Source: Blasia pusilla (taxonomy: Eukaryota). Taken from it: a DNA stretch of 64,000 nt. Made by a program: the position numbers and the translations under genes. Each line of letters starts with the position of its first letter. The first letter of the stretch is position 1. The notes beneath the pieces are model-generated. The model saw only the letters and a list, made by a program, of their open reading frames with translations. It was not told the origin of the DNA and ran no database searches. Positions 22,863-61,495 of the stretch are shown piece by piece. Location of the stretch: assembly GCA_050084515.1 (NCBI GenBank), contig CM114271.1, positions 45,136,001-45,200,000 of the forward strand. The letters are read 5' to 3'.

Positions 22863-22922
22863 GCGTAGAGAGAACGAAGAAATGAAGCGGACCTTATATA
22901 AAATTGAGGACTTTCTTAAGAC

Positions 22923-33500: not shown

Positions 33501-36500
33501 CAAGAATATATTTAAGATTTTCCTCCCAAACAAGATTGAAAATTAAAAGTAATGTAGAAAGAAAGTCTCTCTCATCATTTTGACAAATACTTCATGTCTC
33601 GTCATTCTCATTATCCTTTTTAAGAATTTTCCAAAACATTTATTCATTTTCCATCCAAGCTAAACTAGAAAATTGAAAATTTTAACTCTTTTTTTAAATG
33701 AACCTTTAATCCAATAAATTTTGTTTTTAAAAGGAGAAATGATAATGAAGGACACTAAGGATGCTTTCGTGGAGATTGGAAATATTTTAAACAATCTAAT
33801 TTAAATTTATGCTAGCAATTGAGGATGGGTTTAACGCCCTTCATCGTGTTGAAAGCTGTAATTTTAAAGGGGGAGTCAAATTAAGGAAGGAAGAGGAGGG
33901 AATTAAGTTAAGGGGAGGGGAGAGGAGAGTACATATAAGGACAAGGGAGTCAGAGAGGGGAAAGGCAGATTTTTTTATAAATATTCTTCAAATATATTTT
34001 CTCTAGCATGGGCAACACTGTAGTTTAAGATAATTATGTAATTTTAATTAAAAAGTTAAACTTTAAATTTAAAACTTACACTAAAATGTTTTTTTAATAA
34101 AAGGAAAAATCATGAATTAATCGAAAAGTAAAATTTTCTCCTTAAACTTACTTTTCAATTTAGTATGAGGGTAAATTAAAAGGAGATAGGATAGGTGGCA
34201 TTCATTCATAGGCTTAATGCAAATAATGGTACCATTATCTTCTACATAAAAGGAGCCCACGATAATTTCATAACATTAGTGTGTTCTCATTCCATATGCG
34301 AGATTAAATTATCTCTCAAAACAAGAATCAAGCCTTAGAATTATTAAATATCATTTAAAATAAAGGCGAACAATCCTAGTGACAGGAAGTGCCAATTGTC
34401 AAAAGACACTCTCCCTTTACATGTGGTGTGTTTGTCTGATTCGGGTAAAGTTCGGTATCCGTGCCTAATGGATTTTGGAGAAGGCCAATATCTACAAGTA
34501 TGCATTTCATTGTTTTCCTATCCTACAAAGATGGATGTCCACACTCCCATCTCACTCGCTCTCTTTCATGATGGAATGGGAAAGTGGAACCCGTTCTGAT
34601 GAATAAGCTTCCTATAAACTATAGTAGGCGAGTCCGCCTCGGGATTTTGGTGGTATGCATCTTTTCATCACATATGCAAGTCGACCGCGTGCGTTTGGAT
34701 ATGTGAGGTCATTGTATAATTGGCATGGTTGATTAGAACCTTGATTGCAAGACTAGTAAGGCGCTCATGCGATGCACACAAGAGGTTAAGAGTTTTATTT
34801 TGGTAAGTTGCTAACAATTTTGGACATACAAATCATGCTCAAGTGGGGTCTTTGCCCCAAATGCGTCACATGGTATGATCTCTATAAATTTTCTTCCATC
34901 CAAGTATTTCTTTTTACAATACATTTCATGTAGAGTCACCTTCCTTATTTAAATGTTCATCACTTCGAATGGTAATGTGGATGGAACTTCTCTTCCCTTC
35001 TTTAGATAATGCTACGTACAATTGACCATGAGAAAATAGGGTACTAGGCAAGTAAAGATCAACCTTTTGCAAAATTTGACCTTTAGACTTATTAATAGTC
35101 ATAGTAAAAGTTGGCTAAATAGCGAATTGAAATCTACGTAAATCAAATCGCAAATTGGAGTAAAATGCAATTAATGGGATGCATGGAATAAAAACTTGAT
35201 CTCCAAGATTCTTCCATGTGATGATTTCAACATTTATGCAGTGTTGCATAAGTCCATGAATCACCAATCTAGTTCTGTTTGTTTGTCCATGTGATCCGTT
35301 CATGTTTTGTAAGAGCATGATTGGTGCACCAATCTAAAAGACAAGCGATGCGGAGATAGTCCAGAAGTCAAGCATGTGTTCAAAAATTCAATTCGATAGA
35401 TATGACTCATCCCCTCATTTGGAATAGAATCAGCGTTGAGCTTAATATGCTCATGTACACAATATGTATTGAATTGGTGAGATTAAGTAGTATTACTATC
35501 CAAGAAACCAAGACATGATATCTCCATTTATTTTGTGAACATCCTTATTTCTCGATGTCAAAATAGCCATGTCTCTCAAGAAATAAATTTCATGGAATCG
35601 GATATGAGAATTGTAATGGATCAAATCAATAAGATAGCATATTTTATTACTATTAGTGATAATTCCACATGATAATTGTATAAAGTCTTATCCCAAATAA
35701 GGATGCAAACGTACACGACCCTCTCCCACTTCCAATAATCAATCATAAAAATCTTGTTGTTAAATACGCAATTGACCTTCCAAACTTTGAACTTACATGT
35801 TTGTTGTCAACTTCATGACCTTTACATTAGACCAAAGACATGACTTGTTTATAGAGGCTTGGGCGATTGGCGACCAACCCCTCTGAAGAACAACAATAAA
35901 AACTTCACAAAAGTTACAACCAAATATCATGAATTTTCCACAATATGGTATTTGTTGTAGATCATCAGAGATTGTTCCCGTAATATATTATAAAGAGCGA
36001 TTCACAACCTTGAATGCATGACGATGAGCAATAGGTGTTTTTTCCCATACAATAAGCATCACATCACGGATGAAACGCGCTTTGTCACTATTGATTGAGA
36101 AACTACAAACGACTCAGGGAAGTAAATTAGAATTTGCAACACATGATCAACGTAAGAAATTGTATGCACTGATATAATTAGACGTAAGGCGGGTAATGAC
36201 ACTTACTTGCAAGTAGAGCTCTCATAAAGATTCATAGGGATCTTGAAGTGTGAATGGGCAATATGTTATCCATCTAACAATAGAGCAACTATTTCGGATG
36301 ATGCTACTGCCAAAATTATATCTCTTGCACTCCTTACACTTACAAGGAGAAGATTATATAAATATAGCTTTCTCATTCCACTTGGACCATCAATGAAATA
36401 TTTTTTTGGAGATGGTGGAGCATTCCTACATATTTTATCAAGCTCATGATATATAGAATCTTGTTCCTCCAAATATGAATGTGAACAAAGGCTTTGGAAA

Positions 36501-37532
36501 TTAGCTTGGGGCATGTTAGGAAAGTCAAACAGTCTCTTTCCTTGATCTTGTAAGTAATAGTGAACTTCCAAAAATGCAATATTGATCATAACATCATCAA
36601 AGGAAAGATTAGAAATTCCTATTTTCTCCAATGGAAAAGTTTTGAAAGGTGTTCAGATCATGGTTAGTTTCTTTAATGCTCAATAGAGGGTACTATTAGG
36701 AACAAAACGAAGTATTTAAGGAGTGATCGTGATGATTTCTTATCTCACATTGCTCCCATAAGAGATATTATATGAATGGAACCAAAAATGACTCCATAGC
36801 GAATGGAACCAAAAATGACTCCATAGTGTAGTAGCTAGTTGGGTCGGTGTGTTGTAAGCTAGAATAATTACAAATAGGTGGCAAAGTAAAGAACCCGTAC
36901 GGATCATAAAATCTTCCTCAAAGCAAGAGAACACTTCCCTATCAACCTCGAGAAGTCCCAATTGGATTGCAATCTCCTTGAATGTTAGACATAATACTCA
37001 ATCAATAGTTCTCAAACATTCGTATATATATAGTTGCTCCTCAAACATTATGGAGTAATCTTAGCCAATGACGTTCTCCTTCACCTATGGATGAGTGAAA
37101 TAAATTACCTCATCCCTTTCCACAATAATTCATTCACTTTTGAGGATGGAATATAAAACAAAAATCTAATGTACAAAAAATAGCATATAATTAACTTTTG
37201 AGTATTTGCATAGATGAGTATGTATATGTGGCCAATGGAATGACCACAACCAATTTTTTTGTATCCTAAAAATTCATCTTTTTTTAGTCCAATGATAATA
37301 TGAATGAAAAATCTGTATACATATATTGATAGGCAGTGGAGTCAGATAGATAAGTTGTAAACCATTATGTTAGAGTTGTCTCTCTATTTAGTTGCAAAAC
37401 ATCTTTGGGGGCGTCAACATCATTGAAGTACACCATTTACTACTCTGGAAGATGAATAACTAATTGCACAGTACTTGGAAGTCCAACATGTAGACTAAAC
37501 TTGAAGAGTCGCCAATATGCCTTCATAGAAGA

Positions 37533-38106
37533 TGTCGTGCGAATCCACATCGTCATACAACATACATCGTTGACATACCATACTCACATACATACATAAC
37601 ATAGACGAGAGTATCCACAAACACAAGTGTACCACAACTCGAAATGCGTGAAAGACCTACTGTCATAAAACACGTTTACAATCACATACAATCGAGCCAA
37701 ACCCACTCCACGATGGGAGAATCTAGGTCGAAGCTTGCGGGAAACACCATAGCCAAGAGCTCTACTCACTACTAAGGCTAACTCCCAACGCAATAGGCTC
37801 AACTCAAAGAACTGACTGTTCTTTGAGTGCACTCCACCTTATATCCTCCAACCTAAGAGCGGGCCCTATTGGGAAAGTCACCCCCAACCCTATGTATGGA
37901 ACCGCATCTCTACCAATCCACTACGGTCCTACATAAGGAATGGCCTCTACTAGCACACCATACTCTATGACATAATCCGTATCGTCATGACAAATTATCT
38001 ATCGTGAATCCACATCGTCATACAACATACATATTTGACATACCATACTCACATACATACATAACATAGACGAGAGTATCCACAAACACAAGTGTACCAC
38101 AACTCG
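37533..38106 (-). repeat. 3' terminal block B1 (38106-~37996), A2 (37992-37642), B2 (37641-37533)
   Basis: B1 and B2 are near-identical ~105-bp repeats; A2 matches 46887-47252; the PPT AGGGGGG (38113-38107) abuts B1. Confidence 0.92.
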
Positions 38107-38276
38107 CCCCCCTAACTAGAGGTTAGGTCCCTCTAACTCCCAGGTAGCCCTATACATCTACTACATGCTATACACCTTCTTGGGTGCCCGAATCAGAAGG
38201 CCGGGTGCTAGGTTGCCCCATCGTTAGTCGCACATCTGTAATCCATATCATGCAAAGATCAAGTCATCTACCTCTC

Positions 38277-38420
38277 CTAAGTACATCGAGGACAAACCCA
38301 CCTTCCAAGAGGAACAACATCCAAACGTGGAGTCAAACACATCATGTGCCAACCCCTAGAACACCGATCACACACCAACATACGGGTGGGTTACCAAAGC
38401 AGACCCACACAACATGCACC
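38277..38420 (-). pseudogene. PHD finger at the C-terminus of pol (copy 1)
   Basis: CMLC..MLVCDRCSRGWHMMCLTPRLDVVPLGRWVCPRCT-stop (C4HC3), with one frameshift. Confidence 0.9.
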
Positions 38421-41230
38421 TCAAGCTAGCACGTATCATGGCTAAGCTTGGGTCAAGATACCATCCACATTTGAAGATGACATTGCGCACAATTACGCAC
38501 ATGGTCCTTCCAAACAACTTCATCACGACCCTCCAACATGAGAACTCCGAAGCTAACACTCGCAAGACTCATAAAATAGTGCGGCTGCCGTCACATCCAA
38601 CGTTGTCGGGGCAATCTGCTGCAAATAGACATAGTCCCCACATGGAACCTACGAATCGATGGTCGATAACCTCCACACTCGAATGGTTGCATACCGCAAC
38701 GTATCCCTGTGTTGAGCAATGGCAAGATTCTCAAAGGCGGTTGGCATAACTCTCCGAAAGAGCTCCGCTCGCTGAGAACACACCCTCATCCACATCTCTC
38801 GGGTCATCAAGGTTCACCACCTCACTAGACTCTCGACAATTGCTCTTTGGCAAGTCCGGATCTCGGCCGTATAAAGAAAATAAGGTGAGAAGGAAGCCAA
38901 GGATGCTTGGCGATTGAACCTATACCCCATGGCTAACCATGGCAACCGAATATCCGGTCTCCAAGATGCCCCTTCAGAGGCCATACTTGCGCAATGCCCT
39001 CTTCACCGCCTCGAACCACACGCCAGCCAAACCATCCGCCCCGGATGATCTCGAGACGTGGTCCGATGATCAATCAACGCCTTGTCACACAAGACCTGAA
39101 ACTCACCTTGAAACTCAGACTGGTCGGTCGGTCAAGACTTCAGCTGGTGCACCAAAATGACTAAGCACTCTATCAGAAACGATACGCCGTTCCTCACTCG
39201 CCTTGTCCGGTAATGCCACCAACTCAATCCACTTGGAGAAGTGCTCCACCATCACCAACACATATCGATGATGTCAAATACAATCAACGGTAACGGTCCC
39301 GCATAAAGTCCACACTCCAACGGTAACCCAACCCCATAATAGGCAAGGGGTGTAATTGTGGTGTAGGGGCATTAAATGATGCCTCACCCGGTCACAAACC
39401 ATACAACGTGACACCAATCGCTGCACTGAGTATGCATGCCACGCCACCAATATCGCCAAGGAGTAAGCTATACGACGCTTTACCCCAAAATGTTCCAACT
39501 CCTCATGGGCATGTCGCACAATGCGCTCTCTCTGGAGCCAAATGTGGCACTACTCGTACTCTACCATCCTCCCACACGCGGAGAATATGTGTTCCTCCAA
39601 TCGATACCTCTTAGCACGTTGAAGAACACGGTCTCGCTCCTTGGCACTCACTATGCCCGGCACCCTACTGGTCCGTAGGAACTCCAACACCAATGCATCA
39701 TCATGAATATCACGTTGATCCATACCACCATCTCCAACCTTAGGATCTGAAGGTTGGACATCTACCCTCTGACTAGAGTAAGATATCACGTGGTCCTCCA
39801 TACTAGAGTCCACCCCTAACCAACATAAAAAGGTGGATGCATGCCAACCTGGCACCATCTCCTCATCAACCTCGCCATGCCATCTAGCCCTTGTTGTATC
39901 CTCTTGGCTAGTACATGGGTTCCTACTCAACCCATCAGCATCAAGGTTGGCAACCCAGGTCTATGTACCACCCGGAAGTCATACTCTGTAAGATAAGAGC
40001 CCACCGTGCAAGCTTCCCCGTAAGCTTGTCCGACTCCATCAACCACTTGAGCGGTTGGTGATCAAGAACAAGGGTAAACGGGTGCCAAACAAGTAACACC
40101 TAAAGTGTGCCACAGCCCCCACACTCGCCAAGCACTCTCCCTCATATGAACTATAGCGACTCATTGCATTATTCGAACGACTTGCATAGGCCACCACAAA
40201 CTCCATGTGCTCATCATCATGTTGTGTCAACACCGCTCCAAGTCCCAACCTACTCCAATCAGTGTGTAATTGGAATGGGCGCCCTCTGATAGGTCTCCTC
40301 AAGATAGGCGCCGCCACCAATCGGGCCTTAAGCTCCACAAAAGCTCTCTCCGATCATCTCCACAAGTGCCACTCTTGATCTGATTTCAGCAATTGGTTCA
40401 AAGGCTTTGCCATAGCACTAAATCCCTTCACATACCTCCGATAGTAGTTCGCCAATCCCATGAATGCTCGAACTCTACTCACATCTACCGGACGCGGAAT
40501 AAGTGCAATAGCCTCCACCTTTGCTTGTGAACTCCCAAACCACTTGGATAGATCACATGACCCAAGTACTCAACATCCTCATGGAAGAACTTACACTTTC
40601 TGGATCCAAACGTAGACCATGAGCTTTCAACCGCTCAAACACCATCTGCAAATGTATCGATGCTCCTCCACCGTGTTATTGAACACCAAGATATCATCAA
40701 TGTAACACCGAACAAAATCCAACCCCGCTAGGATCCTCGCCCATCACTCTTTGAAACTCGGCAGTGCATTCTTCAACCCAAAGGGTAAGAATTTCCACCG
40801 GTACAAACAATCCTTTCCATGAGAGTTGACACCCCAAAATGTTGTCTTGGGCTTGTCACTCTCCGAATCGGCAATTGATGGTATCTCGCTCAAGATCCAA
40901 AGTACTGAAAATCTTTGCCTGTCCCACCACATCAAAGATCTCCTCAGGTGTAGGCATGGCATACCTATTGGCCTTGGTTTGCCGATTGATAGGACGGTAA
41001 TCTCCACACATCCGCCTATCCGTGTAGTTGCCATGTATATCCTTTTTAGCAGGCATGACAGTGGCTGATGCATACTCTCCATGCGACAACTCCACTAATC
41101 CAACCTCCAAAAGGTCCAACGTCCTACTCTGAATCAAGTCCCTCTCCATATCACTATATTGGTAGGGACGACGGAAGATTGGCGTATCACTAGCCAAATC
41201 AATCCGTATACCGGGTCCAACCAGAGAACC
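38420..41230 (-). pseudogene. RT, RNase H and integrase of copy 1 (frameshifted)
   Basis: RT RRMCGDYRPIN..YAMP, FLPFGLKNA, CYIDDI; RH FQLHTDWS..VVAYASR..YEGECLA; IN HEELEHFGVKR..CMVCD, VEHFSKWIE. Confidence 0.92.
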
Positions 41231-41639
41231 CAACTCCTTCATGCTAAAGGCAAAACAACTCCTATAAGCACATAGGAAGTGTGTCAAGCGTCGTTTCTCA
41301 CCTCCCGTAAGCTTGGGCCCAAGTAATGGCTCCCAAGTCTCCTCCACTGGCACACTAGAGGGAGAGGACGATGCCATTGGTCGCACGTAACCCCTCACAA
41401 GATGGTACACCCTTAGCTACACCATCATCTCGAGCAAATAACTCCTCCACCAAAGCATGAGCAACCAACTCCACATGCCCACCATTACATCCCATTACTC
41501 CAAGGATGCAAAAATACTACTCCTCGCCTTCACCGATGCCTCTACCATCCCGGTAGCCATCGAGCTCATTACAAGGGGTGGAAGACCCACAGACATAGTC
41601 CGAAGTCGACGCTGCTCGGCCATACCAAGACTCAAAATC

Positions 41640-42570
41640 CAAGTCAAACAATTCAGGTACATGGCCTGACCCAACACATGACGTCGTGAAGCCTCGAAAT
41701 AGAAGCAATTTGTCACACCGAGAGCAAATCCCATCGCACGCTCTCTCTCATCAACGTTAGGCTCCACCAACGCCGCACATGAGAATCCCATACAAGCCCG
41801 GGACCACCTTCCCCGTAGGCATGTGACGCGGGAAAACTCACAAATGTGGGTAGTGCCATCCTAGGTCTGGCCCACACGGTTCACCACCGCCATGGGTGAC
41901 CAATCAATAACCTCACCACTTGAGAAAGTCGCCAAGATTCAAGAAACTATCCACCGTAAGGCGAGGATCCCGCCAGACCGCATCATATGCTCGACGAGAA
42001 CCTCCCTAGGCAACAAGTTTGTCCACCACAAGCGTGGGCGATGTGCACGCTGAGCCAACTCGCGGCCAGCATCCAACAACACCGCTGGTCCAATCCAAGA
42101 GCGCACTCATGAACACTCGCCATCATCCGGTCCGAGTGTCACCCAACAATGGAACATTCTCCGAATGTAAGCTAGAGCACGTGCTCGATGAACTGAAGAT
42201 GTCGTAACACCCGTAATATCTCCCAAAACAATCGAGACCTAGGGTCATGTAATCCCTCACCACAACCAAAGACGTATGACCCGACATGGCCATCCAAAGC
42301 AATCACCAAATCCACAGGACCAACCTCTCAAGGTCCTGCGCTTCAACAATGCAATGTGTGATGGTAAAGCACGCTGGTACCCACGAATAGCCGATGGCGG
42401 CAACAACTCAGGATATCTCGCATCAATCGACCAATATGTCGGGATGAGACTCTCGGGCCGTCTCATCTTGCTCCACATACACGTATCTCCAAGACAGAAT
42501 ACCGCCTGCAACACGCCGCCAAACCAATGCTAATCCCACCAAAGAGATCTAACACACAAATGCCCTCCGC
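41640..42570 (-). pseudogene. DNMT3-like C5-cytosine DNA methyltransferase domain inside pol (copy 1, frameshifted as assembled)
   Basis: Motif I VLDLFGGISIGLAA; II RYVYVE; IV GPVDLVIA-GWPC; GLHDPRSRLFWE; VI ENVP; IX/X ERERAMGF..RRHVLGQAM. Confidence 0.9.
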
Positions 42571-42999
42571 GGATACCGCCATACAATGGGTGTAGTATCC
42601 AAAGGGGTAACCTAATGGACTGAAGTAGGAGTCCGTGGGGCCTCCTCTTCCTCGTGAGGTATAGACCTCACACCAAGCCTCTGCACTAGGCGACGCCTCT
42701 TGCCGTAGTGCACCGCTGAACTCCAAAGTGGCACATCCAACGATGAGGATGCCATGCTGCAAAAATAGGGACCTCCTCTACCTCCTCATGCGCAGGAGAA
42801 TCCATAGCGTAAACATTACCCTCCAAAAGTCTCTGGCCAAGTGACTACTCCACTAAAACCACCACAGATGCTAACATCTTTGGGGAAGACCCTCGGTCGA
42901 GCCCCATAAATAAATCTCACAGAACTTGGCTCATACGTCCATCCCGATCGCCAACCAGGTCTGTCAGAAGATTGTCTCGACCCAAGAATCCATCTGAAA

Positions 43000-45200
43000 A
43001 CCCATCGGGTACAATATTGCTCCTCCAACTAGTACATCATACGACTCGGATGATGTGACTACCTGCAGATACTCCCAACCGGAGCTATCGGTCGCATGAT
43101 CTGGTCTCAACTGCAGAAAACTTCTCCCGTGTCATGAATTGAGACCTATCATTGGCTCTCCAAGTGATGTTTGAATCTGGAATGGGCAAGGCTCAAGCTC
43201 GACCTCCGAATACCCAAACCAATACATGCCGCCTTTCCCAACATCAAAGGTTGGGCACCGTGAGTCTAACAAGACTCTATCCGGTCTATACACCTATCCC
43301 TGTAGGACTCACCAATCGGAAGATCCCACTCCGGTTGTCCAACATACATACACACGGTGTAAGCCTCTCACGATCAATGGTGGCCGGGTGGTAATGCATC
43401 CATCTTCGCCGCCGCCGCCGCCAAGTAGCACCGGGTACTCAATGCTACTCTCGACATAGAGGGTCGCTCCACCGCAACACCCTCATCCACCTCAACACGT
43501 AGCAAGAATACCCCACGTTCACACAACGTGGTCGCTAATCAAATACAGGAGCTAAGTCAACTCCTAAAGCCATCACCCGTGGCCGAAAACAATGGGGATC
43601 CCAACACCGAAGTTGCCATCCGCACATCGCATTGATGTCGATCCGTGTCTACTACACGCGATGTAGATGCCTCGATCCCCACTGCCGGCTCAATAGGTCG
43701 CTGAGGAACCATGGATGGAGTCCTAAGCACCTCAGACAACAAGAATGACTGGGAAGCCTAGCCTGTCTCCCAACCTCACCCCCTCTGTGGGTCCAACTCC
43801 ACAAGAGCACCACGTGGCTCGATGCTCGAGTGGCTCCTCTCAGAATCGCACGGTGATGCCTCAACCTCGGCCGCACTCGCCATATAAGAGAGATCATCCC
43901 TCCATAAGAGGTGGAAGCCCTTGCTCCCGAAACGATCTATCGCCGGATACCGACCATAGTAGCCAACTCGCGCTCCAATGCTCAATCCTCGGCAGCCATA
44001 GTCGATTGTCGAGTGGTAGGGGTAGCCACCATAGGCTCTCCAACCACCTGGTCCACCTCTACCACCCCTACCACCTCTACCACCTCGGCCTCTCGGAGCT
44101 ACTCCACCACGGCCACGGCCCGATCTCAACTCCGATGAAGATCAAAGCAACGCTCGAGGATGACCTAGTCTCCCGCAATGATCACACTGAGTTGGGGCCG
44201 ACCGAGGCCCATCCTCCAAAGTTCGTCTCCCATCCTCTTGGGGACAAAACTTCCTAACATGATCACCTCCACATGTCCAACATGATCGCCCTTCGCTGAG
44301 GCAGCAAATGAAGGCAATGGTCTCTGCACAAATGTCCTCTAGGACTTGATGAGGTCGCGTGTACCCCCCCACGACTCCCACTACTACTACCACCACCACT
44401 ACTACGAGATCGTGAGGTGGGCGGTGAACACGAGAAGTAGTAGTTGTATCCCTCTTGAATGCGGATGTCACCACTCTCTCCTTCACCATGTTAAGCTCAA
44501 TCTTCTCGAGATAGAGCAAACACATGGGTCAATGTGGGTGAATCATCACTCATAAGAGTAGCATCACGCACCCTACGGCGCAAATCTCTCGCCCAAGATC
44601 CCATACCAAAAATCGATCGCTCGATCCTCGTCACACCCTGGTAAGGTAATGAAATCAAGCGCCGATACGCGTGTATGCCTCACGAAGACTCTCACCGTCT
44701 TTCGCTCAAAGTCCTGAAGATTCCTCAACTTCTCCGTCTTCACTCCTTGATAGTTCTTCTTCAACCTCTTGAAGAACTCGCAATCGGCTAAACGATGGTG
44801 GGGCACTAGTACCCCCACTAGTACCTCCACCGGTATCCCCACTCCGGCTCAGACTGCATTACCACTCAAAGATCGGATCGGGCCGGGCATAGTAGGAGCA
44901 CTACTACCAATACCACCATGGGTGATAGACACATAGCCGGAGACCAATATTGTCTCCATGCCTCAATCTCATCAATATGGTCCTTCCTAAACTCATGGTA
45001 ATCATCCATGGGTGGTCCTTCCAAGTGTTGAAACAACCCTTCCAAGCCAAGAAGGGTGTAAACAACGCATGGCGTTCCGCAACATCTGCATATCACACCA
45101 CGTATCAAACTCGCATGAAGTCCTCCGACTCAATGGTACCCACTGCACCGAGTATCGCCGTGGGCCCTTCATGGCCCCATATCCACCGTCCATGTCCCAA
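43000..45200 (-). pseudogene. gag (two CCHC knuckles, RGG tract) and aspartic protease of copy 1
   Basis: CWTCGGDHVRKFC, CDHCGRLGH, GRGGRGGRGGRGG, and RVLLDS(G)AQPLM at ~43240-43280. Confidence 0.85.
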
Positions 45201-46874
45201 ATCAATGGAGTGCAACACTCGATAACACCGAGAAGACTGGGGTGTTTGGAACACCTCGCCCTCCTCCTCTTCATCAACCGTCGGAAGTGGAAAAGGTAGC
45301 CGATACCTAAATCCACTCCGTGTGAAACCACCACTGCCCACACCACGGTCCCCAACCAGACCACCCGACAGCTCCGTGATGACCAACGCCGATGCCGCAC
45401 CACCACCAAATTACCAAGTGACGTCGATGTCGCTATACTATTCTAGCTCTACTAGCTATGGGTGTAGGCAACCTAACTTGTCATCACCACAAGAAGTCTC
45501 CCACAATCTACTCGTCATCCCTCCAGCCTCACTACCGCTAGCACACAGGAGTAACACTACTCCGAAATCGGCGTCAACCCTAACAATGGGCGCAAAGCAA
45601 GAAGCACGATGGAGGGATCCAAACACAGAAATCCAACGACAACCCTCCAATCGCAAATGGAAATCAAGGTAACACAATCCACCAAACGTGGTGCCCTCTG
45701 AATCCACCAAACCCACCACACAATTCTAACGCAATAGCTACTCCCCCGCGGGTTGATGACGTGCTAGTCGAACGCGCAACACCTGAAAATATCACCTGCA
45801 TGGAGAGGCTACACCGTAATATGCGCTAGAGGTACATCAACCAAAAACCTGAGATGCATAAAGCGCCTAACACATCTCCGAACAGCACCAAATGAGCTAC
45901 AACAGTCTGTACACTGGCATAGTTAAGAACTCGGCAGTTAAGCGTCCTCCAGGCAGAATAGCCCAAAGATGGGTGACCAGTTATGCAAAACTCAAATCCC
46001 AAATCCTGCAAAAATTGCCTCACGCCCAAGCAAGCAAGCTTGCTTGCTTGCTCCTTGCTCCTTACTCCGCCTCTCACGCCCACTCGCCCCGAGCTACCAC
46101 GAGTTGCCTCGAAGCCTCGAAGCCTCGAAATGCTCGAGACATGCCCCTATTGCCCCGTTCGCCATGCTTCGCTATGGAGAGAGGTCCAACTAGGGCGCCC
46201 CCAACGGGATAGGCATCTCCAAAAATGAACGAGTCACCAACCAACCAGCCCCTCCGATCCGCTGTCCACCATAGCCAGACCTTGAGCTAGTCCGCGAAAT
46301 TTCGATCAGAAATTACTTCACAAATACGTGACCAAAATCAAATCTATTTCGATCAGAATTCAATTGACCACCATAGCTATCTCCCCACAAAAACTCAGCT
46401 ACAACCGAGCTCCGTACTCCGAGCTAAAAATCAGACAAACTTCTTTGTCCATACACCTCTAGAACCCAAATCCGGATAGCGCTTCCGCCAAGTTTCATGC
46501 ACGCGAGAAATCCGCAACGCTCCACGCACTCGAGCAGATAGCTTCACATGAGATCACAATACAAGTAGCAATAGGAACCTCTCACCCGATCTGGATGGAC
46601 TTCAACAGAGCTTCCGCACTCCAAGCTCTCCACATAAGAAAACTGTCAAACACGAACAGAATCTTCAATGCTTGATAACTTCCAACTCCTTGACGAAATC
46701 CGGCGATCTACAGCGTTGGAAAGCTCTCAGCAAGGCGCTTCTTTCCCAACCAACCACGCACCTGATTCACACCTCCAACATAGGCAACAAGCCCCGAACA
46801 TCCACGGCTGAGTACACAATCGGCCCTAACCAGATCCCTCTTGATCTACAATCAAGCTACCATCGATCTACTCC

Positions 46875-46886
46875 AGTTCTTTGAGT
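46875..46886 (-). promoter_or_regulatory. Self-priming primer-binding site
   Basis: ACTCAAAGAACT directly after A1 is the exact reverse complement of AGTTCTTTGAGT (47058->47047), which starts 30 nt after TATAA (47088). Confidence 0.8.
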
Positions 46887-47252
46887 GAAATGCGTGAAAG
46901 ACCTCATTGTCATAAAACACGTTTATAATCACATACAATCGAGCCAAACCCACCACGATGGGAGAATCTAGGTCGAAGCTTGCGGGAAACACCATAGCCA
47001 AGAGCTCTACTCACTACCAAGGCTAACTCCCAACGCAACAGGCTCAACTCAAAGAACTGACTGTTCTTTGAGTGCACTCCACCTTATATCCTCCAACCTA
47101 AGAGCGGGCCCTACTGGGAAAGTCACCCCCAACTGAGTAACCCCCAACCCTATGTATGGAACCGCATCTCTACCAATCCACTACGGTCCTACATAAGGAA
47201 TGGCCTCTACTAGCACACCATACTCTACGACATAATCCGTATGGTCATGACA
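46887..47252 (-). repeat. 5' terminal repeat A1 with TATA box
   Basis: Matches 37642-37992 with a handful of substitutions and ~3 indels; no B segment attached. Confidence 0.92.
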
Positions 47253-50200
47253 AAGACATATATCTGGAAGAAATTATGTCAAGTATTCAAGTAAGGAGAA
47301 TGAAAAAATAAAATTTAGAAATAAACTATAATTCAAAAAAAAATCATCAATTGGTAGAATCATACTTTGTATTAAGATATGAGGTTGTCTTATCAATGAC
47401 TTCCATTACATTGGATGTATCCATATTTTTTAACAAGTTAAGTATCACTATATCAGACCCCTTATATACATATTTATATAAGTTCTTCACAAAAAAAACA
47501 TTACTTGTGATCTCTTAATTAATATGACAATCAAAGAGGGTGCACAACATAGATATTTATTGATCTTGTGGTCAATTCACATTTCATGGATCAATAATAT
47601 TCGTATAAGATTTATTTTAAATAATTAAAGATTTGGCTCCTTGAATGATTTCTTAACCTATCATTTTCTTTCAAAGTAAAATTTCCAAATTTTTCTCCGT
47701 ATAACGACCCCTACTACTCTCACATATAATAAATTCTCTCCCTCGTATTGCCATGTATGGTTTTTGTGGCATATGGGTACTAAGTAGATTCGTAGTGGAG
47801 AGGCTCCATAATGCAAGTTATTTTGTGACAACTTCTCAATCATAGATATGAATGGAGATGTGAGCCACTTAAAAATGACTTTCGGATTTATTGCACTCAT
47901 GTTAGCATTTATCTACTAACCCTCCATATAATCAACCACATTCTTCCTTGGTATTAAGACTTTTTTTTGTACTTTCTCCAATCCCTTTGTATTAATCCTA
48001 CAATCAATTAATCAATCAAGCAATCAATGCAAGAAAATTTTAATTTTTTCTTTAATCTTCTTTCCAATTCGGTAAGTAATTTAATTTTTCTTTCGTAATT
48101 TAATTTCCTCCCCTTCAATATTATTGTCTGCCTCCCATAATACCATTATGAGCGTTAACTTACTTTGACGTACTATGAATGACTGAATGAGTGCGACTTG
48201 TGAAATGTTTTCATGAAGCCAGTTCATGAAACCTCTCTAATTTTTAAAATTTTCCCCTATACTAAACTTAGAATCTGAATTAGGGGAGAGTTTAAATAGT
48301 AATTTCTTATTTACTATTTATAATTATAATTATTAAAATAACTTAAAAATAAGAAAGGAAATATCCCCATTGGAATATTCCAAATTCTCCCTCGTATCTC
48401 TTAATTTTTTAATCTTAAAATCTAAAATTATTTCTTCAATTTTATCATAAAAAAGAATACTTTTCAAATTTCGTTCGGAGGGAAAATTGATTCATCTTCT
48501 AAGAAAAATAACAGGTCAAATTTATTTATTTTATTTTTTCAATCGAAGCATGAGAATTGAGAAATCTAGTATTTTCTAATTTATTTAAAAAAATTTAAAA
48601 TAAAATCATCATATATTTTAAATTTTAAATATATTATTTTAATTATATTTTTAATATTGGAATGTATGTGCTAAAAATTTTTCACACTATTTTCTGGGAT
48701 GCACGGGCTTAGTTATCTCCCAAAATGGTAATTAACGTTCAAACTATCAAATATCATTCAATTAATTTCAAACGATCTCATTAATTGAGATTATATCAAA
48801 TGAAAAAATTGAAAAAAAAATACCCTCCGACAATAATATACTAGTTAGGACATGCCAGGGCGTTGACGAACAATTTCTCTGTCAATTTTCAAACCATGTC
48901 TAGATGACGTTTAATTCCGAGAGAAATTCAATGACACAACAAGCAACTCTAGAAATGGACTCGTAGAGCCATCCACGTAGACAACACCATGAACATGGAT
49001 CTTTGTTTAATTTAACATGCGATGTCACTATCTTTACCAACATCTATATATGGTCCAAATTATAACGACCGTAAAATATGGTTAAAAAATAATAACATGC
49101 GTCAACCATAAGAAATAGAACTGAAAACACAGCATCCTCCAACTAAGTAGCAGATATATATTACCTTTCGTTCCCGGTAATCTCACCCGAACTTTACCAG
49201 TGGTTCTTGATATCGGAGACAAGGCGGTGTGGACGAGAAACGCCAGATCGTGCGGAAGCCAGAATTCCTATCAGCTTACGCTCGCAAGCTTATGCCTCCG
49301 TTCCAGCTGGCTCTCGGCGAGTGGCTACCGTTCTCCGGTAGCTCACAAGCTGTTTGGTGAACTTTGGTCTCTGACACGTGTGTGGAAGGGAGACGAACAC
49401 CGGTTCCTTCCTTTCTGATTGGTTGGGAAAGAGTAGGGAGTGAGAGTGAGCGAGATGGAGGGGGAACATTCTTGTCAACGCACCGACTTGACACGGCGCC
49501 ACGATGCGCGCGCGCGTGGATGGAGGAAGACCACCGGATGCTCGCCAACGGCTGGGAGTCTCCTTCGGACGTAGCCAGCCAGCCGCCCGCACGCCCGCAG
49601 CGTCCGTAGGAGAGTCTGCTCGCCTGCGATTCGACCTTAAGCCGCCTCCAATCCAACAGTAGTTAGTTAGGCGACGTACATATTACATACACTTCAGGAC
49701 TGTCGTCGACAACTACTACTGAAGCTTCGGGATCCCCCGGCTTCGATGTTTTCCCGAGGCTCCGTAGGGGAACTGGATCCTCTCCTTCAGCTGAATATCT
49801 ATATATCCATCGGCGATGGACACTCGAAAGACTTTCGATCGGCTGAAGTGTCTCCGCTCGGAAGTGAGTGAGGGAGAAACGCCGCGAGCTACCGACTGAA
49901 CCGCTTGTGGTTTTGCGATTTATCGAAGTGAGGCACGTGTCTGTCAAGCGAGACGATCGGGAAAGGAAGTGTCCGTTTCGATCTTCTCTTTCTCTTGCTC
50001 GCGATTAGATTAGTGGATTGCGTCTTGAAAGTGGAAACGTAAGTGTGTGACGGTTGAAGCTGCCCATGCATATCTACTGGTAAGGAAGGGGAGAGGGGAG
50101 AAGAAAGTCCATGAGAAGTAGAGCATTCCACTCTTGTATAAGCTATGTTTAAAAGTAGTGAGTGCGTTTCTTTCAATGTTCCATCCAGTTTTTGGTGTGC

Positions 50201-50749: not shown

Positions 50750-51400
50750 CCCCATGTCATGCACACTCCAAATTCGTGCTTTAACTATGCAGTTGCATCC
50801 ATTACCGATCATGAGTTTAGGTTACATAAGGAATTCAGATTTTACAAAGCCTTCCATATGGTGCATCTTAGCCATATGATGTAATTTGGGGGTATGAAGG
50901 CATGGCAAATGGAGCCATAGGACTTGATGATATGGTTGCAAGAGATTTGTACCATTCTCGTGAAGGTTTTAAGGGTCGTGTATTATGGACCTCGTATACG
51001 GGGCTCCTTTGATCATTTTTCACTTATCGAATCTTTCCAATCCAATAAATATCTAATGGTATCATACTCATAAATTTCATGAGTTGAAGACCATTGCATG
51101 CCCACAATCATCAAAGATCTCTCAAAGGATGGATATTACATATTTATTCGCATTCTACTGATTGATAAGTCGATCAATAATCTCGAGACAAGTGCTTATT
51201 CATCTAGGTGTCATCCATATCATTCTAGGAGGGTATGAGTATGACAGATGGATACTCTCCATGCAACATCTCCATTAGTCTTTCCTTGACCATGTCTTGG
51301 CTTCTGTTCTAAATTAAGACGTTCTCCATATCACTTTATCTATTGGATCATCAAAAGACGAATCCATGGAACCTTCAACAGTCCCAATGTATTATGCTAA
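50750..51400 (-). mobile_element. Highly decayed retroelement integrase-like debris
   Basis: Scattered motifs (HLSYSYPP.., YGSICHAFIP) resemble an integrase core and C-terminal region; no open frame. Confidence 0.25.
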
Positions 51401-54214: not shown

Positions 54215-54492
54215 GTTGTCGTGCGCATACATATCGCTACCCAACATACATCGCTGGTCACATCTACGCCACACAACACCGATCTTCCCCACACACGGGT
54301 CGATCCACATGTACAAAAATCAACTCATACATATACATGGAGATCACACAACGTTGTCGTGCGCATACATATCGCTATACAACATACATCGCTGGTCACA
54401 TCTACACCACACAACACCGGTCTTCCCCACACACGGATCGATCCACACATGTACAAAAATCAACTCATACATATACATGGAGATCACACAAC
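54215..54492 (-). repeat. Tandem pair of ~139-bp B repeats (54215-54352, 54353-54492) next to the PPT
   Basis: Near-identical direct repeats, each starting GTTGTCGTGCGCATAC on the plus strand. Confidence 0.95.
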
Positions 54493-54567
54493 CGCCCCCT
54501 AGTTGGTAGTTGGATCCCCCCAACTCTAGATAGAAAATATCACATCTCTCTGACATGACCTACTACC

Positions 54568-54715
54568 CTATACACATCTCGGACACATCCATCGTCCCGT
54601 GGGAACCAGATCAAGAGGGGGGGTCAGACATGACATATGCCACCCTTGAGAACAACCATCACATACCAACATGGTGGCTGCACCCCTCGTAGATCCGCAC
54701 AACATACACCTCAAG
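54568..54715 (-). CDS. PHD finger at the pol C-terminus (copy 2)
   Basis: CMLCGSTRGAATMLVCDGCSQGWHMSCLTPPLDLVPTGRWMCPRCV, an intact C4HC3. Confidence 0.92.
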
Positions 54716-57630
54716 CCTGCAGATACCACTGCCAAGCTCAGATCCACCGTCCCATCTACGTTCGGAAGATGACATGGCGCACAATTGCGCACATGATCCT
54801 TCCAAACCATACCATCCCGTCCCTCCAATATGAGGACTCAGGTCGGTAATACCTTGCGCACACGTAGGATCGTGTGCCCTGCAGTGACATCTAGCGTCGT
54901 AGGTGCCGCTTGCTGTAAATACACGTAACCTCTAGGATGAAACCTCCTAATACCTGGACGATAACATCCTCCATGAATGGTCGCGTACCTCAATGTATCT
55001 CTATGCTGGGCAATAGCTAAGTTCTCAAAGGCCATAGGCATAACTCTAAGAAAAACCTCTGCCCTCTGAGAACATGCTTGTACCCACACATCTAGATCAT
55101 CAAGATCTAACACCTTCGTCATGTCACGTTGAATCGCTGCAGGTAAATCAGGCTCTCTCCCAAAGAGCAAAAAGTACGGTGAAAATGTCGCCAAGGATGC
55201 CTGCCGACTAAAGCGATAACCCATAGCCAACCATGGCAACTGTAGGTCCCACTCGCTGAACTGTCCCTTGCAAGCCATACTTGCGCAATCCTCTCTTCAC
55301 CGTCTGTACCACTCTTTGCGCCAACCCATCCGCCTCAGGATGATCTCTGGACGTGGTGCGGTGATCTATCAGCGCCTGATCACACAAGGCCTCAAAAATC
55401 TCCCCTGAACTCGGTACCCTGGTCTGTCAACACCTCCGCCGGTGCTCCAAAGTGACTAAGCACACGATCTAGAAACGCATAAGGTGTTCCCTCGCTCGCC
55501 TTGTCTGTAGTGCCACCAACTCTATCCACTTGGAGAAATGCTCCACCATGACCAACACGTAGCTATGATGACACCCCGTCAATGGCAAAGGTCCGGGAAA
55601 GTCTAAAATCCACCGATAACCTAAACCCATAATCGGCAAAGGATGTAATTGCGGAGTGGGAGCATTGAAGGCTGCTCGCACTCTGTCACATACCATACAT
55701 CTGGCCATAAACTGCTGTACCCCATTAGGCATGCCGCGCCACCAATACTGAACCTGGAGTTAGCTGTAAGTACGCTTTACTCCAAAATGTCCCAACTCCT
55801 CATGGGCATGTCGCACTACACGTGCTCGTTGGGAAGGATGAGGTACCACTTGTATCCTACCATCTCCCCATACCCGCAAAATGTGAGTCCCCTCCCACCG
55901 AACCTCTTGGCTCCTCAGAGGATCCGATCCCGCTCCCTAGCACTCACTGTACTCGCAATGACGCCAGTGCGCAAGAACTCCACAACCTCCACGTCGTCAT
56001 GGATATCACGACCACCTGTCGCCTCCTCACTAACCTCCGGATTGAAAGACTCATCATCCAATCCCACCACTGGAGTCATCACTTGTGGCTGACCTGCCAT
56101 AGTCAACCAACAAAGATAGGCAGATGCATGCCAACCGGGCACCATCTCCTCATCACTCTCTCCGTGCCATCGAGCTCCTGTGTCGTCTCTCTGACTCGGA
56201 CATGGGTTACGACTCAACCCATCCGCATCCAGGTTCAACCGAATTGGTCTAACTCATACTCTTGTAGTAATAGAGCCCACTTGGCAAGCTTTCCCGTAAG
56301 CTTGTCGGACTCCATCAACCACCTCAACGGTTGATGATCAGTGATAAGTGTTAAAGGGTTGCCGAATAAATAGCACCTGAAATGTGCCACAGCCCACACT
56401 ACAGCCAAGCACTCTCCCTTGGAGGAGCTGTACTTTGCTTCTGCAATGTTGTTCGATCAGCTCGCGTAAGCCACAACAAACTCTCTCTCCTCGTCATCCC
56501 TCTGAGTAAGCACTGCTCCTACACCCAACATGCTCCAATCTGTATGTAACTGGAATGGGCGACCCCTAACCGGTCTCTATAAAATGGGTGAGGACGTCAA
56601 CCTGTCCTTGAGCTCCTGAAATGCTCGTTCTTGATCATCTCCCCACAACCAAACCTGATCAAGTCTCGTCAACAAGATCAAAGGCTTTGCGATCGCACTA
56701 AAATCCTTGACATACCGTCGATGGAAGTTTGCCAGTCCAAGAAATGCTCAGACTCGACTCACATCTATAGGGCGTGGAATGTGCGCAATAGCCTCTACCT
56801 TTGTCTGATGAACGCCTAACTCACTCGGGTATATGATGTGTCCCAAGTACTCAATCTGCTCTTGAAAGAATCTGCACTTGCTTGGATGTAACTTCAGTCC
56901 ATGTAACTGCAATCGCCGAAACACCTCCTCCAAGTGTCGCTCATGCTCCTCAACCGTGGAACTGAAGATAAGAATATCATCTATGTAACATCGTACAAAA
57001 TCCAAGCCAGAAAGAATCCTATCCATCACTCTCTGAAACTGTGCAGGTGCGTTCTTCAACCCATATGATAAGAACCGCCATTGATACAAGAAATCTCTTC
57101 CGAACCGATCTATCCCCCAGAATGTTGTCTTCTCCCTGTCCTCCAACTTGATAGGAAGTTGATGATAGCCAACACGGAGATCTAAAGTACTGATGATGTT
57201 TGCATGCCCTACCGCATCAAAGATCTCATCAGGAGTAGGCATGGCGTACAGATCTGACCTCGTCTGTCGGTTGATAGGACGGTAGTCTTCACACATCCGC
57301 CTATCCGTCCAATTTCCATACATATCCTTCTTCTTCGGCATGACTGTGGCAGATGCATACTCCCCATGTGATAACTCCACAAGTCCTACCTCCAACAAGT
57401 CCTGACTCCTGCTCTGAATCAAGGCTCACTCCATATCAGAATACTTGTAGGGTCGACGAAAGATTGGCGTATCACTAGCCAACTCAATATGTATCCCGGG
57501 ACCCTTCAGTGTACCAAAGTCTCTCATACTGAAGGCAAAACAACTGACATGCCCTCTCAGAAACCTATGAACTCGCCGTCGCTCTCCTCCTATCAACTTG
57601 AGACCTATCACAGGCTCCCAAGTCTCCATT
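54716..57630 (-). pseudogene. RT, RNase H and integrase of copy 2
   Basis: ORFs 56748-57422 (DYRPIN, YGLKNAPAQFQR, YIDD), 55469-55732 (CMVCD, DFPGPLP) and 54838-55278; contains stops and frameshifts. Confidence 0.93.
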
Positions 57631-57924
57631 GTGACCTCACTCAGAGAGGATGCAACCTCCGGCTGTGGTTGCTATGTAGCAACCCTAGCCACCTCCGCAA
57701 CAGCCACTCCACTCTGACCTCCTACACCATGCTCCACATCCAAAAAATAAACATGTGCTACTCTAGACGCCTTTGCACTCTCTGCTCAAACGACGTCCCA
57801 ACTAGTCCATGGGTGCCTATCTCTCCTCATCTCGCCCCCAACCAATGCCTGTACAGACCCTGTAGGCAATGGTCCAACTTGTGGACGTGACGACATGGAT
57901 GACACTCGCATCCGTCTCTGCTCA

Positions 57925-58600
57925 GCCAAACCTATCCATGTGAGACAGTTGAGGTCCATCGTCTGCCCCAACACCTGTCTCCGGAAAGCCTCAGTCATCC
58001 CTTGCACCGCCATAGTACCAGTAGCAAACTCCATGGCGCGCTCGCGCTCATCTGCTGTAGGCTCCTCCAATGCTCCGGTCACCTCATCCCAAATCCTGCC
58101 TCACCCTCCTTGACGAAAGGCATGGGATGCTGGGAAGCTCACCAACGTAGGTAAGGCTGCCCTCAACTCCCCCATCCTATTGGCCATGGCCAACGGTGGT
58201 CTATCATCGCGTGTCACCACCTGAGATCGACTCCCTGAGCCTCAAATAGCATCCACTATGAGATGTGGTGCTCTCTGGACTCCATCGTATGCTCGACTCA
58301 GTACCTTTGATGGTATCACGTTTGTCCACCACAATTGTGGAAGATGGGCACGTGATCCAACTCTCGCCGCATCTAATAACACAGATGGTTCCAACCAGGA
58401 CCTCACCTGATACACACTCGTCATCACATGTGCACGAGTATCTCCCAACAATGGCACGTTCTTCAAGATGTACGTTGGAGAACATGTCTGACTCTCCTGC
58501 AAGTGTTGTACTACTCGCAGCATCTCCCAAAACATCCCTGACCTCGGATCTTGCAATCCCAATCCTCGGCCAGTTGATTAATGACCCTAACACCCTCCTC
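57925..58600 (-). pseudogene. DNMT3-like domain of copy 2 lacking motifs I-IV
   Basis: GLQDPRSGMFWE, ILKNVP (motif VI, E>K), LLDAARVGSRAHLPQLWWTN (VIII), LPTLVSFPAS, ERERAMEF..RRQVLGQTMDL (IX/X). Confidence 0.88.
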
Positions 58601-60790
58601 TGGGCACTGCCATACAACGGGTGTGATATCCAGTGGGATCAACGTCTCCACTCCAAGATCCCGATCGCCACGTGACTCTCGCTGCTCCGGGATAAAAGCA
58701 TGACTCCACGCGTGCCTCACAAGGTCGTCGGCACTCCTCTGTAGCTCTCGAGTCGTATCCCACAATGGTGAAGAGATGTCGCCAACATGGGAAGAGACAA
58801 CCGCCATGGCCTGTCTCTCCGTGGGACTATCCGCTACGGGGACATCCTCCGCATGTGCGTTCCCCTCCAACAACTCTCCTGGCCAGCTAACACTACCTGT
58901 GAAAGACGCCAACGTGGTCACAGACTCGCCTCGTGATCGACCACCTCGTCCCGCAAACTGCACGGGTAACTGACTCATCCGCCCGTCACCTGACCGCCAC
59001 CCTGGCCGATAAGCAACGGTCTCCTCCCAGAAGTCAAGGATGAATCCTAGGGGATAAAACACTGTACTCCCCACCAACACATCGTACGACTCAACTTGTG
59101 TTGTAATCGCACGTCTGCGCACCATAGCACTATCAATCTCATGCTCTGGCTAGACTCTGACAACTATCTTCTGTCGAGTCATATACAGCGTGGGTGACAC
59201 GCAGTATATGGAAGGAACAAGGCTCAATGTCGGCCTTCCGTAACCCCAACGCTAAACACGCCGCCTTCCCTTACATCAAGGGTTGCGCTCCCGAATCAAG
59301 TAGGACGCGCAGCAGGTGGTATACTATCCCCGTCGGACTAACCAAGCGAAATACTCCAGCTCGGTTATCCAGTAACACTACTCCATGTGTCACCACTGCT
59401 CGATCTATGGCCGGTCGAGCTGGCATATCTACCAACTTCGCCGCCGCCGCATGCCATGACTTTGTGGGGAACGTCCCAAGCACCCGCTCTGAGGGCAAGT
59501 CCACCACCTCCTCAACTACCTCTAAACAAGAAGCAGTCATCTCTCCAAGCTCACACAATGTGGCGGCCAGTCGGAACACCTCAATTGGTCCAACTCCCAA
59601 CGTTGCCAACTCTCCGGCAGAAAATAGTGGAGTCTGACTCACTCTGGTGACCACCTCCAACACTATGGTCGACACTGACTCCACTCCAGCTGGCATAGGA
59701 GTTATCACTCCAACTCCTCGTGACGTCGACGTAGGTGCTTGAGTTGTAGGCACCGCCGGTCGTCGAGGCAACATCAATGGGGTGTGTAGTGCCTCCAACA
59801 ATGTGAATGATTGTGGAACCCTAGCCTGCCGCCCATCGGTCCCCTCTGGTGGGTTAATCTCAACTCCACCTCTCGATGGCTCGGTGCCTCTCGCAACACC
59901 CCGAGTCACCACTGCAGCTGCCTCAACGTGGGCTGCACTACACATAAATCCCATATTGGTGAGATCCTCACCTGGGTCAGGGTAAGAGGTAGAAGCAAGA
60001 GTCACACTAGCTGCTTGTAGCTCCGTGCCTTCCCTAAGCTGCATCATCGTCATGGCAGCAATCCTCTACTCCAACTCATCGATGCGTGAGAGAAGTGCCG
60101 GATCTGGTGCTCCTCCTCGATCTCCTCTGGCTCGTGGTGGTCCTCTACCACCACATCCAAGAAGGACTCCCCAACCTCCTCCAGGATGACCGCCCCGAGG
60201 CCCTCGGCCTACCTTTGGACGTGCCCCTCGGCGAAGGTCAAAACATCTATCCCTAGTGTCACCATATTTGTGGCAATAGTCACACTGGTGCTGTGGTGGG
60301 GCCATCCTCTGTGGCTCCTGAGCAATCGGAGGCGCTGGTGGTCCTCTCTCATGCTGTGGGCAGTCTCTCTGCCTATGGGCCCCTCCACACGTCCAACAAG
60401 ACCACATTGGTCCGTGCTCGACAACATATGTAGGTACGGGTCTTTGCCTCATAGGCTCACGGTACCCACCCTGCTCTCTGGGCACACCGGCCCGCTCCCG
60501 TGGTACTGGTGTTCGCTGTGGCACCTGCGGGGTCACCGTCGCTAGTGGACCCGTCGACTCTTGAGAAAATCCAGTGGTCACTACCTGCTCCTCACTCATG
60601 TTGAGCTCAATACGCTCAGACGACTCAAAGACCACCTTCAATGTGGGCTTCACTGTGTGAATCAGCACCGCATCTCGGACTCTCCTCCATAGTTCTCGGT
60701 CCAGAACCCTGTACCAATACAGGATTGACTTCGCCTCAGTCATTCCATACGTAGCAATGATCAGCCTCCTCATGCGTGTGAATGCCTCTC
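58600..60790 (-). pseudogene. gag and protease of copy 2
   Basis: CWTCGGAHRQRDC and CDYCHKYGDTRDRC; ORFs 60066-60773 and 59271-60053 are in the same frame, separated by one stop. Confidence 0.88.
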
Positions 60791-61495
60791 TTAGACACCA
60801 TGTCTCAACCGCTCAAGCACTCAGACTCACCGAGAGTCTCCCACACGCCTCACTAGCTCACCTATGCTAAGATCAATCTCGTGATGACATACCCGGCCTC
60901 ACGCACACTCAACACTCGGGCTCATCATGAGCCTCCCAACTAACTCACCTAACGTAGCGACACTCTCTCGGGTCATACACGCGACCCCTACTCGGCAACT
61001 GCAGTATATCCATCAATATGCTACACATGAAAAGAATCTACACTCATCACCATTGCTACACCCACCTAGCACCAGCTACTACCCGCTACCTAGCACTCTC
61101 AATCACACACAACAAGTGCAGGAAAAGGGACTCGAATAGGTAACCTCATCATGCCCTCCAACCTACGACATCATCAACACGCACTCCCCCATGTGACATG
61201 GAAACCTCATGACTGACAAACTCCCGTCGCGGATCCCATCCACGCTTACATATCACCAAATGCATAAACGAGCTCCCATTGCACAACTCGCCTCAACCAC
61301 GTCCAATTGTTCAACCTCGTAGCCAGAGTCAACCTGATCTGGCTCCACTCCTACCACGTCAACATGACCCCGACCACATTCGGCCTTTCCCAACCACATC
61401 CGCACTCTCAACCACGTAGCTCAACGTCATCCACGTCCGTTGTCCAACTATGTAGGTCACTTACCACGTCGATATCCTCACCGCCACCACGTTAC

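Follow-up and report, generated by a model that had tools for sequence, protein, structure and literature searches.

The window, by which we mean the whole 64-kb stretch of DNA analysed here, holds two copies and one internally deleted fragment of a Gypsy-type retrotransposon family whose elements carry a DNMT3-like DNA methyltransferase and end their integrase in a PHD finger. The features are listed below, with coordinates counted along the window.

37533..47252, minus: copy 1, full-length Gypsy-DNMT3-PHD element of 9,720 bp with TG...CA ends and the layout A-coding-B-A-B
47253..47256, minus: 4-bp duplication TCTT (TSD) on the 5' side, with its twin at 37529-37532
46887..47252, minus: repeat A1, with a TATA-like box (47091-47082) and a predicted self-primer (47058-47047)
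46875..46886, minus: putative primer-binding site of copy 1, able to pair with the 5' end predicted for the RNA
44442..45054, minus: gag core of copy 1, frame broken
42973..43293, minus: aspartic protease of copy 1 (homolog P0086)
41621..42608, minus: DNMT3-like C5 methyltransferase of copy 1, frame broken
40501..41275, minus: reverse transcriptase of copy 1
38809..39408, minus: integrase core of copy 1
38480..38660 (approximate limits), minus: SH3/Tudor-like C-terminal barrel of the copy 1 integrase, modelled on another copy's frame
38277..38420, minus: PHD finger of copy 1, frameshifted (finger 38418-38280, stop 38279-38277), from six-frame translation and Pfam
38106..38115, minus: polypurine tract ahead of repeat B1
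37993..38106, minus: repeat B1 and the internal B/A junction
37641..37992, minus: repeat A2, 93% identical to A1
37533..37640, minus: repeat B2, 98% identical to B1, with CA at its end
34926..37528, minus: decayed Helitron-like Rep/PIF1 helicase, split by copy 1
54217..61208, minus: copy 2, of a second subfamily, 72% identical to copy 1, 5' end missing
57933..58592, minus: DNMT3-like domain of copy 2
57666..57674, minus: in-frame TAG CAA CCA between DNMT3 and RT of copy 2, a predicted leaky stop
54568..54708, minus: PHD finger of copy 2, intact C4HC3 plus stop codon (finger 54708-54571, stop 54570-54568), from Pfam
6638..8742, plus: family fragment with an internal deletion, a gag/protease piece fused to a B-A-B end

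The domain order of the element is gag, protease, DNMT3, RT, RNase H, integrase and PHD, which includes the PR-RT-RH-INT order of Gypsy elements with a DDE integrase. The methyltransferase is present in both copies and is a non-permuted DNMT3-like domain, 29 of its 30 PDB matches being DNMT3A/B/C, in line with the DNA-methylation writer of the sequence-only reading; its catalytic motifs are intact as GWPCQG in 22 of 37 copies and as ENV in 26 of 37. The Helitron around copy 1 also holds up, with PIF1 Pfam matches on one flank and the TCTT duplication on both sides. On the other flank, 47257-47514 has no Pfam match and is assigned by its Helitron motifs, as a likely continuation of the Helitron.

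Elsewhere in the window lie exons of a cryptochrome/photolyase gene (11900-16750, minus strand; PF00875, PF03441), a zinc-knuckle gag-like frame (924-1790, minus) and a C17orf113-type zinc finger frame (63301-63921, plus), both probably from other transposons, a short inverted-repeat family (22516-23191 and 51419-51745), and a small RT fragment between copy 1 and copy 2 (51056-51358).

The integrase tail and its family

The integrase finishes in a PHD finger, as originally proposed. The finger of copy 2 matches Pfam PF00628 over the entire profile (1-47/47) in an unbroken frame at 44.6 bits (E 1.5e-11), and the 3' part of the copy 1 finger reaches 39.6 bits by itself, the Pfam cut-off being 24 bits; the C4HC3 ligands and the core Trp that define the class are present. 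The statement that both copies hold a C4HC3 PHD applies in full to copy 2; in copy 1, all eight ligands are kept but the frame is broken between Cys2 and Cys3 near 38395, a frameshift inside the finger that had gone unstated. In another copy (L082:6174-8168), a stop-free natural frame joins RNase H, integrase and PHD, and the order at the integrase end is core, small SH3/Tudor-like barrel, PHD. The slot after the barrel is the position where chromoviruses place their chromodomain, in agreement with the position first assigned to the finger; here the integrase frame stops at the PHD, and Pfam gives no chromodomain after the integrase.

In an alignment-based model of the integrase tail (pLDDT 71, pTM 0.40), which does not fix the barrel-PHD arrangement, the barrel spans residues 25-86 and the finger residues 99-149; a single-sequence fold (pLDDT 39) was discarded. 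The top structural match of the finger is the ATXR5 PHD (Z 9.2, rmsd 1.4, 51 aligned), and the barrel resembles the PHF19 Tudor (Z 8.2) and retroviral integrase C-terminal domains (Z 6.1-6.2). Foldseek matches of Tudor-PHD pairs to the tail, at rmsd 13-14, are informative on domain order only. At the barrel/PHD boundary (about 38480-38510 and 54772-54795, alignment A4) there is also a nearly invariant H-x3-C-x2-C-H motif, a possible extra zinc site.

The family is present in thousands of copies in the source genome (390 Mb, 26 contigs searched). The PHD region returned 10,931 first-look candidates, of which 150 were scored and are 88-100% identical, and PF00145 returned 5,347, of which 123 were scored, neither figure being a copy number. 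The top PF00145 matches lie on two small contigs (C20 and C23; L071-L074), look different from the DNMT of the element and are possibly non-nuclear or contaminant sequence. The DNMT lies upstream of the PHD in all 20 subfamily-1 copies and in 8 of 10 subfamily-2 copies picked by their PHD; picked by the DNMT, 9 of 10 loci have the PHD downstream, as do 22 of the 27 metagenome loci of adequate length. Between the three subfamilies, PHD, DNMT and integrase are under purifying selection, with dN/dS of 0.09 and 0.10 for the PHD (the third subfamily pair is saturated, pS 0.77 and pN 0.14), 0.09-0.12 for the DNMT and 0.06 for the integrase. In this high-copy Ty3/gypsy family, the integrase thus normally ends in the PHD.

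None of the sampled subfamily-1 copies has a stop-free frame longer than 400 codons. Substitution divergence between their A1 and A2 is just 1.4%, yet indels are many and recur at identical sites (L031-L070), and part of the frame damage may be assembly noise. In RNA from three runs of one study, 4,506-5,138 reads cover the entire internal region, nearly all from the same strand, which would be the sense strand in a stranded library of the common type. The majority of these reads are 90-99% alike and thus come from other family members; an indel relative to copy 1 lies inside the PHD in 119/144, 105/132 and 111/145 reads of the three runs.

A protein homology search returned named relatives from Marchantia, Calypogeia and Sphagnum, and further ones from distant hosts. 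In the tree, the DNMT of the element clusters with those of the three bryophytes (support 95/99), so its host is probably a bryophyte too; several gene models annotated in Marchantia are fragments of the family. No named Klebsormidium protein was among the homologs returned for the PHD or DNMT searches. Relative P0126 has the same domain order as the element and no stop between DNMT and RT. In distant relatives, the DNMT sits between RNase H and integrase in a single frame (clade 98/98), and the order RT-RH-DNMT-INT-PHD in one frame is seen in P0059, P0062, P0063, P0109 and P0113. In two of these, a weak PTM/DIR17 Tudor match, below the cut-off, follows the PHD, and the terminal region of three carries putative adenine-methyltransferase-like motifs.

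Repeats, priming and the stop before RT

The layout A-coding-B-A-B with TG...CA ends is found in copy 1 and in all 20 fetched subfamily-1 copies, which were chosen by their B-A-B 3' end, and 19 of these 20 have a perfect 4-bp duplication. The same layout recurs in metagenome loci L142, L160, L164, L172 and L180. Other ends also occur: the 3' end of copy 2 (54217-54492) and L023 have B-B without A2, and L013, L015, L018, L025 and L027 have a single B, all of which are possible products of aberrant circles or recombination.

The bases after A1 are complementary to a stretch that follows the TATA-like box by about 30 nt. The match is 10-13 nt long in 14 of the 16 measurable copies (5 of 21 were not measurable), whereas none of 800 control positions exceeds 8; the sequences at these sites are different in subfamilies 2 and 3, with matches of 14 and 15 nt. 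Self-priming is known from Tf1 and Tcn1 (PMC6317226), and a Tf1-like self-priming is predicted for this element. A polypurine tract stands ahead of B1. The internal B/A junction reads CA-nn-TG in 14 of 21 copies and is often palindromic (copy 1: 37993-38000), and the A2/B2 joint shifts by one base among copies (copy 1: 37640-37641). Ordinary reverse transcription would yield B-A-coding-B-A; closure of a circle followed by a cut at one internal junction could convert this product into the integrated layout A-coding-B-A-B. The CA-nn-TG junction suggests integration from an opened two-LTR circle.

The sequence-only reading placed a chromatin reader and a methylation writer in one polyprotein. Both do belong to one element and share a frame, but an in-frame TAG intervenes (57674-57672 in copy 2). 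This stop between DNMT and RT lies at the identical place in three subfamilies, although the flanking residues differ. For subfamilies 2 and 3, a fixed-flank search of the genome found TAG followed by CAR CCA at 2,049 of 2,197 junctions; in subfamily 1, a clean TAG CAG CCA remains in just 4 of 20 copies and the remainder are garbled, as is the junction of copy 1 at about 41390, just upstream of RT. Of the 60 metagenome loci that span the junction (among L113-L192), many of them near-identical copies, 56 have a stop followed by CAR-YY-N in the equivalent position; exact CARYYA occurs in only 6 of the 60, 47 read CAA CCC and 15 use TAA, and distant metagenome elements carry CAG TTA and CAA TCA after the stop. 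UAG CAR YYA is the readthrough consensus of tobacco mosaic virus (PMC2754532, PMC3542737). The family has this type I signal together with an in-frame downstream ORF, from which readthrough is predicted.

The frame between DNMT and RT is open in relatives such as P0126, and DNMT and PHD stand in one open frame in P0126, P0059 and P0062. Many homologous database proteins of 1,200-1,450 residues end 90-170 residues past DNMT motif X, without RT. The likely products are an abundant gag-protease-DNMT3 and a rare readthrough to RT-integrase-PHD; since the stop separates the two parts, a single polyprotein likely needs readthrough.

What the finger may read

We surveyed the finger in the 44 of 117 fetched proteins that contain it whole (35 short, close homologs and 9 long, distant ones) and in 15 metagenome copies. 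K4me3-reading PHDs have an invariant cage Trp, and K4me0 readers have instead an acidic cluster N-terminal to Cys1 (PMC3241642). At the cage-Trp position, two residues ahead of the His, both copies in the window have Gly, as had been noticed at the outset, and so do 33/35 short homologs, 8/9 long ones and 15/15 metagenome copies, so the finger lacks the mark of an H3K4me3 reader. The P-x-G-x-W loop, the hydrophobic strand before Cys3 (M-L-x in 34-35/35, a feature of H3K4me0 readers) and the Asp directly after Cys3 (34/35) are conserved. The best 60 PDB relatives are headed by CHD4, PHF12, KDM5A/B PHD1, MLL3, DPF, BHC80, AIRE, BAZ2, UHRF1 and ATXR5, with ORC1b also among the nearest. Many of these, some by the titles of their PDB entries, are readers of the unmodified H3 tail, and the resemblance to such readers that was first suggested is supported.

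Like the PHDs of the UHRF1, KDM5 PHD1, BAZ2 and ATXR5 type in sequence and fold, the finger has no aromatic cage and keeps the Asp after Cys3, presumably the equivalent of UHRF1 D334. Unlike them, it has no second Asp (0/35 short homologs have one after Cys4), no acidic N-terminal residues and a net basic charge (+1 to +6 in 34/35). In UHRF1, D334 contacts H3R2 and is essential, loss of the second Asp weakens binding nine-fold, and K4me3 is bound just three-fold worse (PMC3214078). For the PHD and the H3(1-32) encoded in the same genome, the predicted complex has a score of 0.44 against 0.02 for the best control, with 81% contact agreement and a partner pLDDT of 56; 51 of 78 solved pairs attain these marks, as do 2 of 108 mismatched ones, and the 0.44 possibly reflects solved complexes that the predictor had learned. 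The score weakly supports H3 binding. The finger is probably an H3 reader anchored on A1 and R2, K4-tolerant and weak.

Do the insertions themselves tell where the finger leads? The sequence-only reading took the transposon debris around the copies as fitting chromatin targeting. The flanks of 20 subfamily-1 copies show 4 nested in their own family and 2 more with the family on one flank, and in a genome with thousands of copies such surroundings are no evidence of targeting; the Helitron site of copy 1, though real, is uninformative as well. Apart from a T-rich duplication, these flanks show no preferred sequence, and the junction density on the first 18.9 Mb of contig C1 is 5.3 per Mb, equal to the genome mean; within the family's own data, neither shows a targeting signal. 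The mutation spectrum of the copies (CG 0.037-0.049, CHG 0.059-0.065, CHH 0.008-0.016, A/T 0.009-0.014) has CG and CHG transitions raised three- to six-fold, as expected of methylated plant repeats; it marks the copies as methylated, whichever enzyme is responsible.

The claim that the finger targets H3K4me0 chromatin fares less well. A strict H3K4me0 reader that, in the manner of the ADD domain, leads both the integration of the element and its DNMT3 into silent chromatin would fit the missing cage Trp, the hydrophobic residues before Cys3 and the strict readers BHC80 and AIRE among the nearest structures, and the readthrough product would carry both domains until cleavage. Eight of the 9 long, distant, single-frame relatives do have an acidic residue ahead of Cys1, and conserved Asp residues 12 and 16 positions before Cys1 might substitute for the cluster. 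Within five residues of Cys1, however, D/E is absent in 33/35 short homologs and 13/15 metagenome copies, and the finger is net basic, so strict H3K4me0 reading is unsupported. The parallel to the ADD of animal DNMT3 is weak as well: the finger belongs to the integrase and lies about 1,000 codons from the DNMT, with a conserved stop, RT and RNase H in between, and coupling of that kind is unlikely since the DNMT changes position among relatives and the PHD stays on the integrase. We regard this explanation as quite unlikely. Given the same basic charge and the loss of both acidic features in the bryophyte clade, the finger may bind H3 weakly or not at all. It is conceivable that it has lost histone reading altogether and that its basic surface contacts a host protein or DNA, be it of the target or of nucleosomes, or that the finger has a structural role in the integration complex. 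PHDs with non-histone partners exist (PMC3241642), and the copies are dispersed at the genome-mean density; against this stand the retained R2-binding Asp, hydrophobic strand and P-x-G-x-W loop, and the weakly positive H3 complex score. We give this possibility a modest chance. It is highly improbable that the element captured the PHD as a neutral passenger or that the match arose by chance: copy 1 is frameshifted, and the subfamily-1 finger has pN 0.031 above pS 0.015 (few sites, in copies picked by that end), but dN/dS between subfamilies is about 0.1, the eight ligands are invariant in 43 aligned relatives, and the finger occurs across liverworts, Sphagnum and distant hosts. A chance match or a host gene was rejected on the Pfam score, the linkage to element domains and the purifying selection.

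The explanation we favour, and consider moderately probable as a whole, is that the integrase PHD tethers the integration complex to the nucleosomal H3 tail and that the DNMT3 is mostly made separately, ahead of the leaky stop. The tether would likely be through the first H3 residues, with a sensitivity to K4 methylation that is probably weak. Most ribosomes would stop after gag-protease-DNMT3, and the methyltransferase would thus be made in Gag-like amounts, its substrate being perhaps the cDNA of the element itself or new copies; a minority would read through to RT-RNase H-integrase-PHD, with the protease cleaving the parts from one another afterwards. The element would be served by both reader and writer, likely as separate proteins and not as an ADD-DNMT3 unit. 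We can also sketch a bolder picture, which is tentative and rather unlikely to hold in every part: a lineage-wide, transcribed Gypsy class that self-primes, loads DNMT3 into its particles at Gag stoichiometry through a TMV-type leaky stop so that its cDNA is pre-methylated, opens a two-LTR circle at the CA-nn-TG palindrome with its DDE integrase, and picks nucleosomes with its PHD.

Known relatives and significance

The family matches the Gypsy-DNMT3 (KnitGypsy-Dnmt3) kind already known from green algae. KnitGypsy-Dnmt3 of Klebsormidium has DIRS-like repeats and its DNMT in the Pol ORF; the enzyme had no activity in yeast, a result its authors deem inconclusive (De Mendoza et al., PMC5890265), and the streptophyte elements are named again in 10.64898/2026.05.21.726589. 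By description, not by sequence, the two share the domains of a Gypsy element plus a DNMT3-type domain that is non-permuted, the DIRS-like repeat layout A-coding-B-A-B, a DNMT under purifying selection and methylated copies. Our family differs in its land-plant host and thousands of copies, in the predicted leaky stop that separates DNMT from RT, and in the integrase-terminal PHD, a term absent from the text and supplements of PMC5890265 searched, Fig. 4c aside. The open-licence text searched gave no account of a PHD, leaky stop or self-priming in the Gypsy-DNMT3 family.

Like the chromoviruses Tcn1, Tf1/Sushi, Tekay and CRM (PMC6317226), the element has a chromatin-reader module after the integrase barrel, and its predicted self-priming is shared with Tcn1 and Tf1; unlike them, it has a PHD in place of the chromodomain, a DNMT3 and split repeats. 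PHD-bearing transposons have been reported, including Chlamydomonas Gypsy-7a_cRei (PMC9940879, PMC8557442, PMC2836005, PMC6673714), in which a PHD in the Gypsy polyprotein is likewise a proposed insertion guide. That element inserts intergenically 2.6-fold above chance, has near-ordinary LTRs and, in the available text, no DNMT listed. EpiLTRs (10.64898/2026.05.21.726589) also join a chromatin reader and a DNA methyltransferase in one LTR element, in their case chromodomain, DAM and a DNMT4-related enzyme, in Cymbomonas and Euglena. The Phygy clade of Physcomitrella (PMC6317226) consists of moss-type Gypsy elements that are comparable in size and also make 4-bp duplications, but is described there with a tRNA-Trp PBS, an NCGN preference and no extra domain. 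Membership in Phygy was rejected, as our family has predicted self-priming and no tRNA-Trp PBS, an NCGN target in 0 of 20 copies, and two extra domains.

A DNMT3-carrying Gypsy element was previously known from one alga; here it is a major, transcribed land-plant repeat family with relatives in liverworts and peat moss. Its integrase PHD is a testable second route to chromatin-guided integration beside chromodomains, and its repeat layout allows a test of the old question whether a DDE integrase can integrate from circles. Such domains, present in thousands, inflate the numbers of DNMT3 and PHD genes annotated in bryophytes. The leaky stop predicts the amount of methyltransferase and argues that the enzyme does its work inside the particle or at the newly made copy; this reading may bear on why transposons capture a silencing enzyme of their host.
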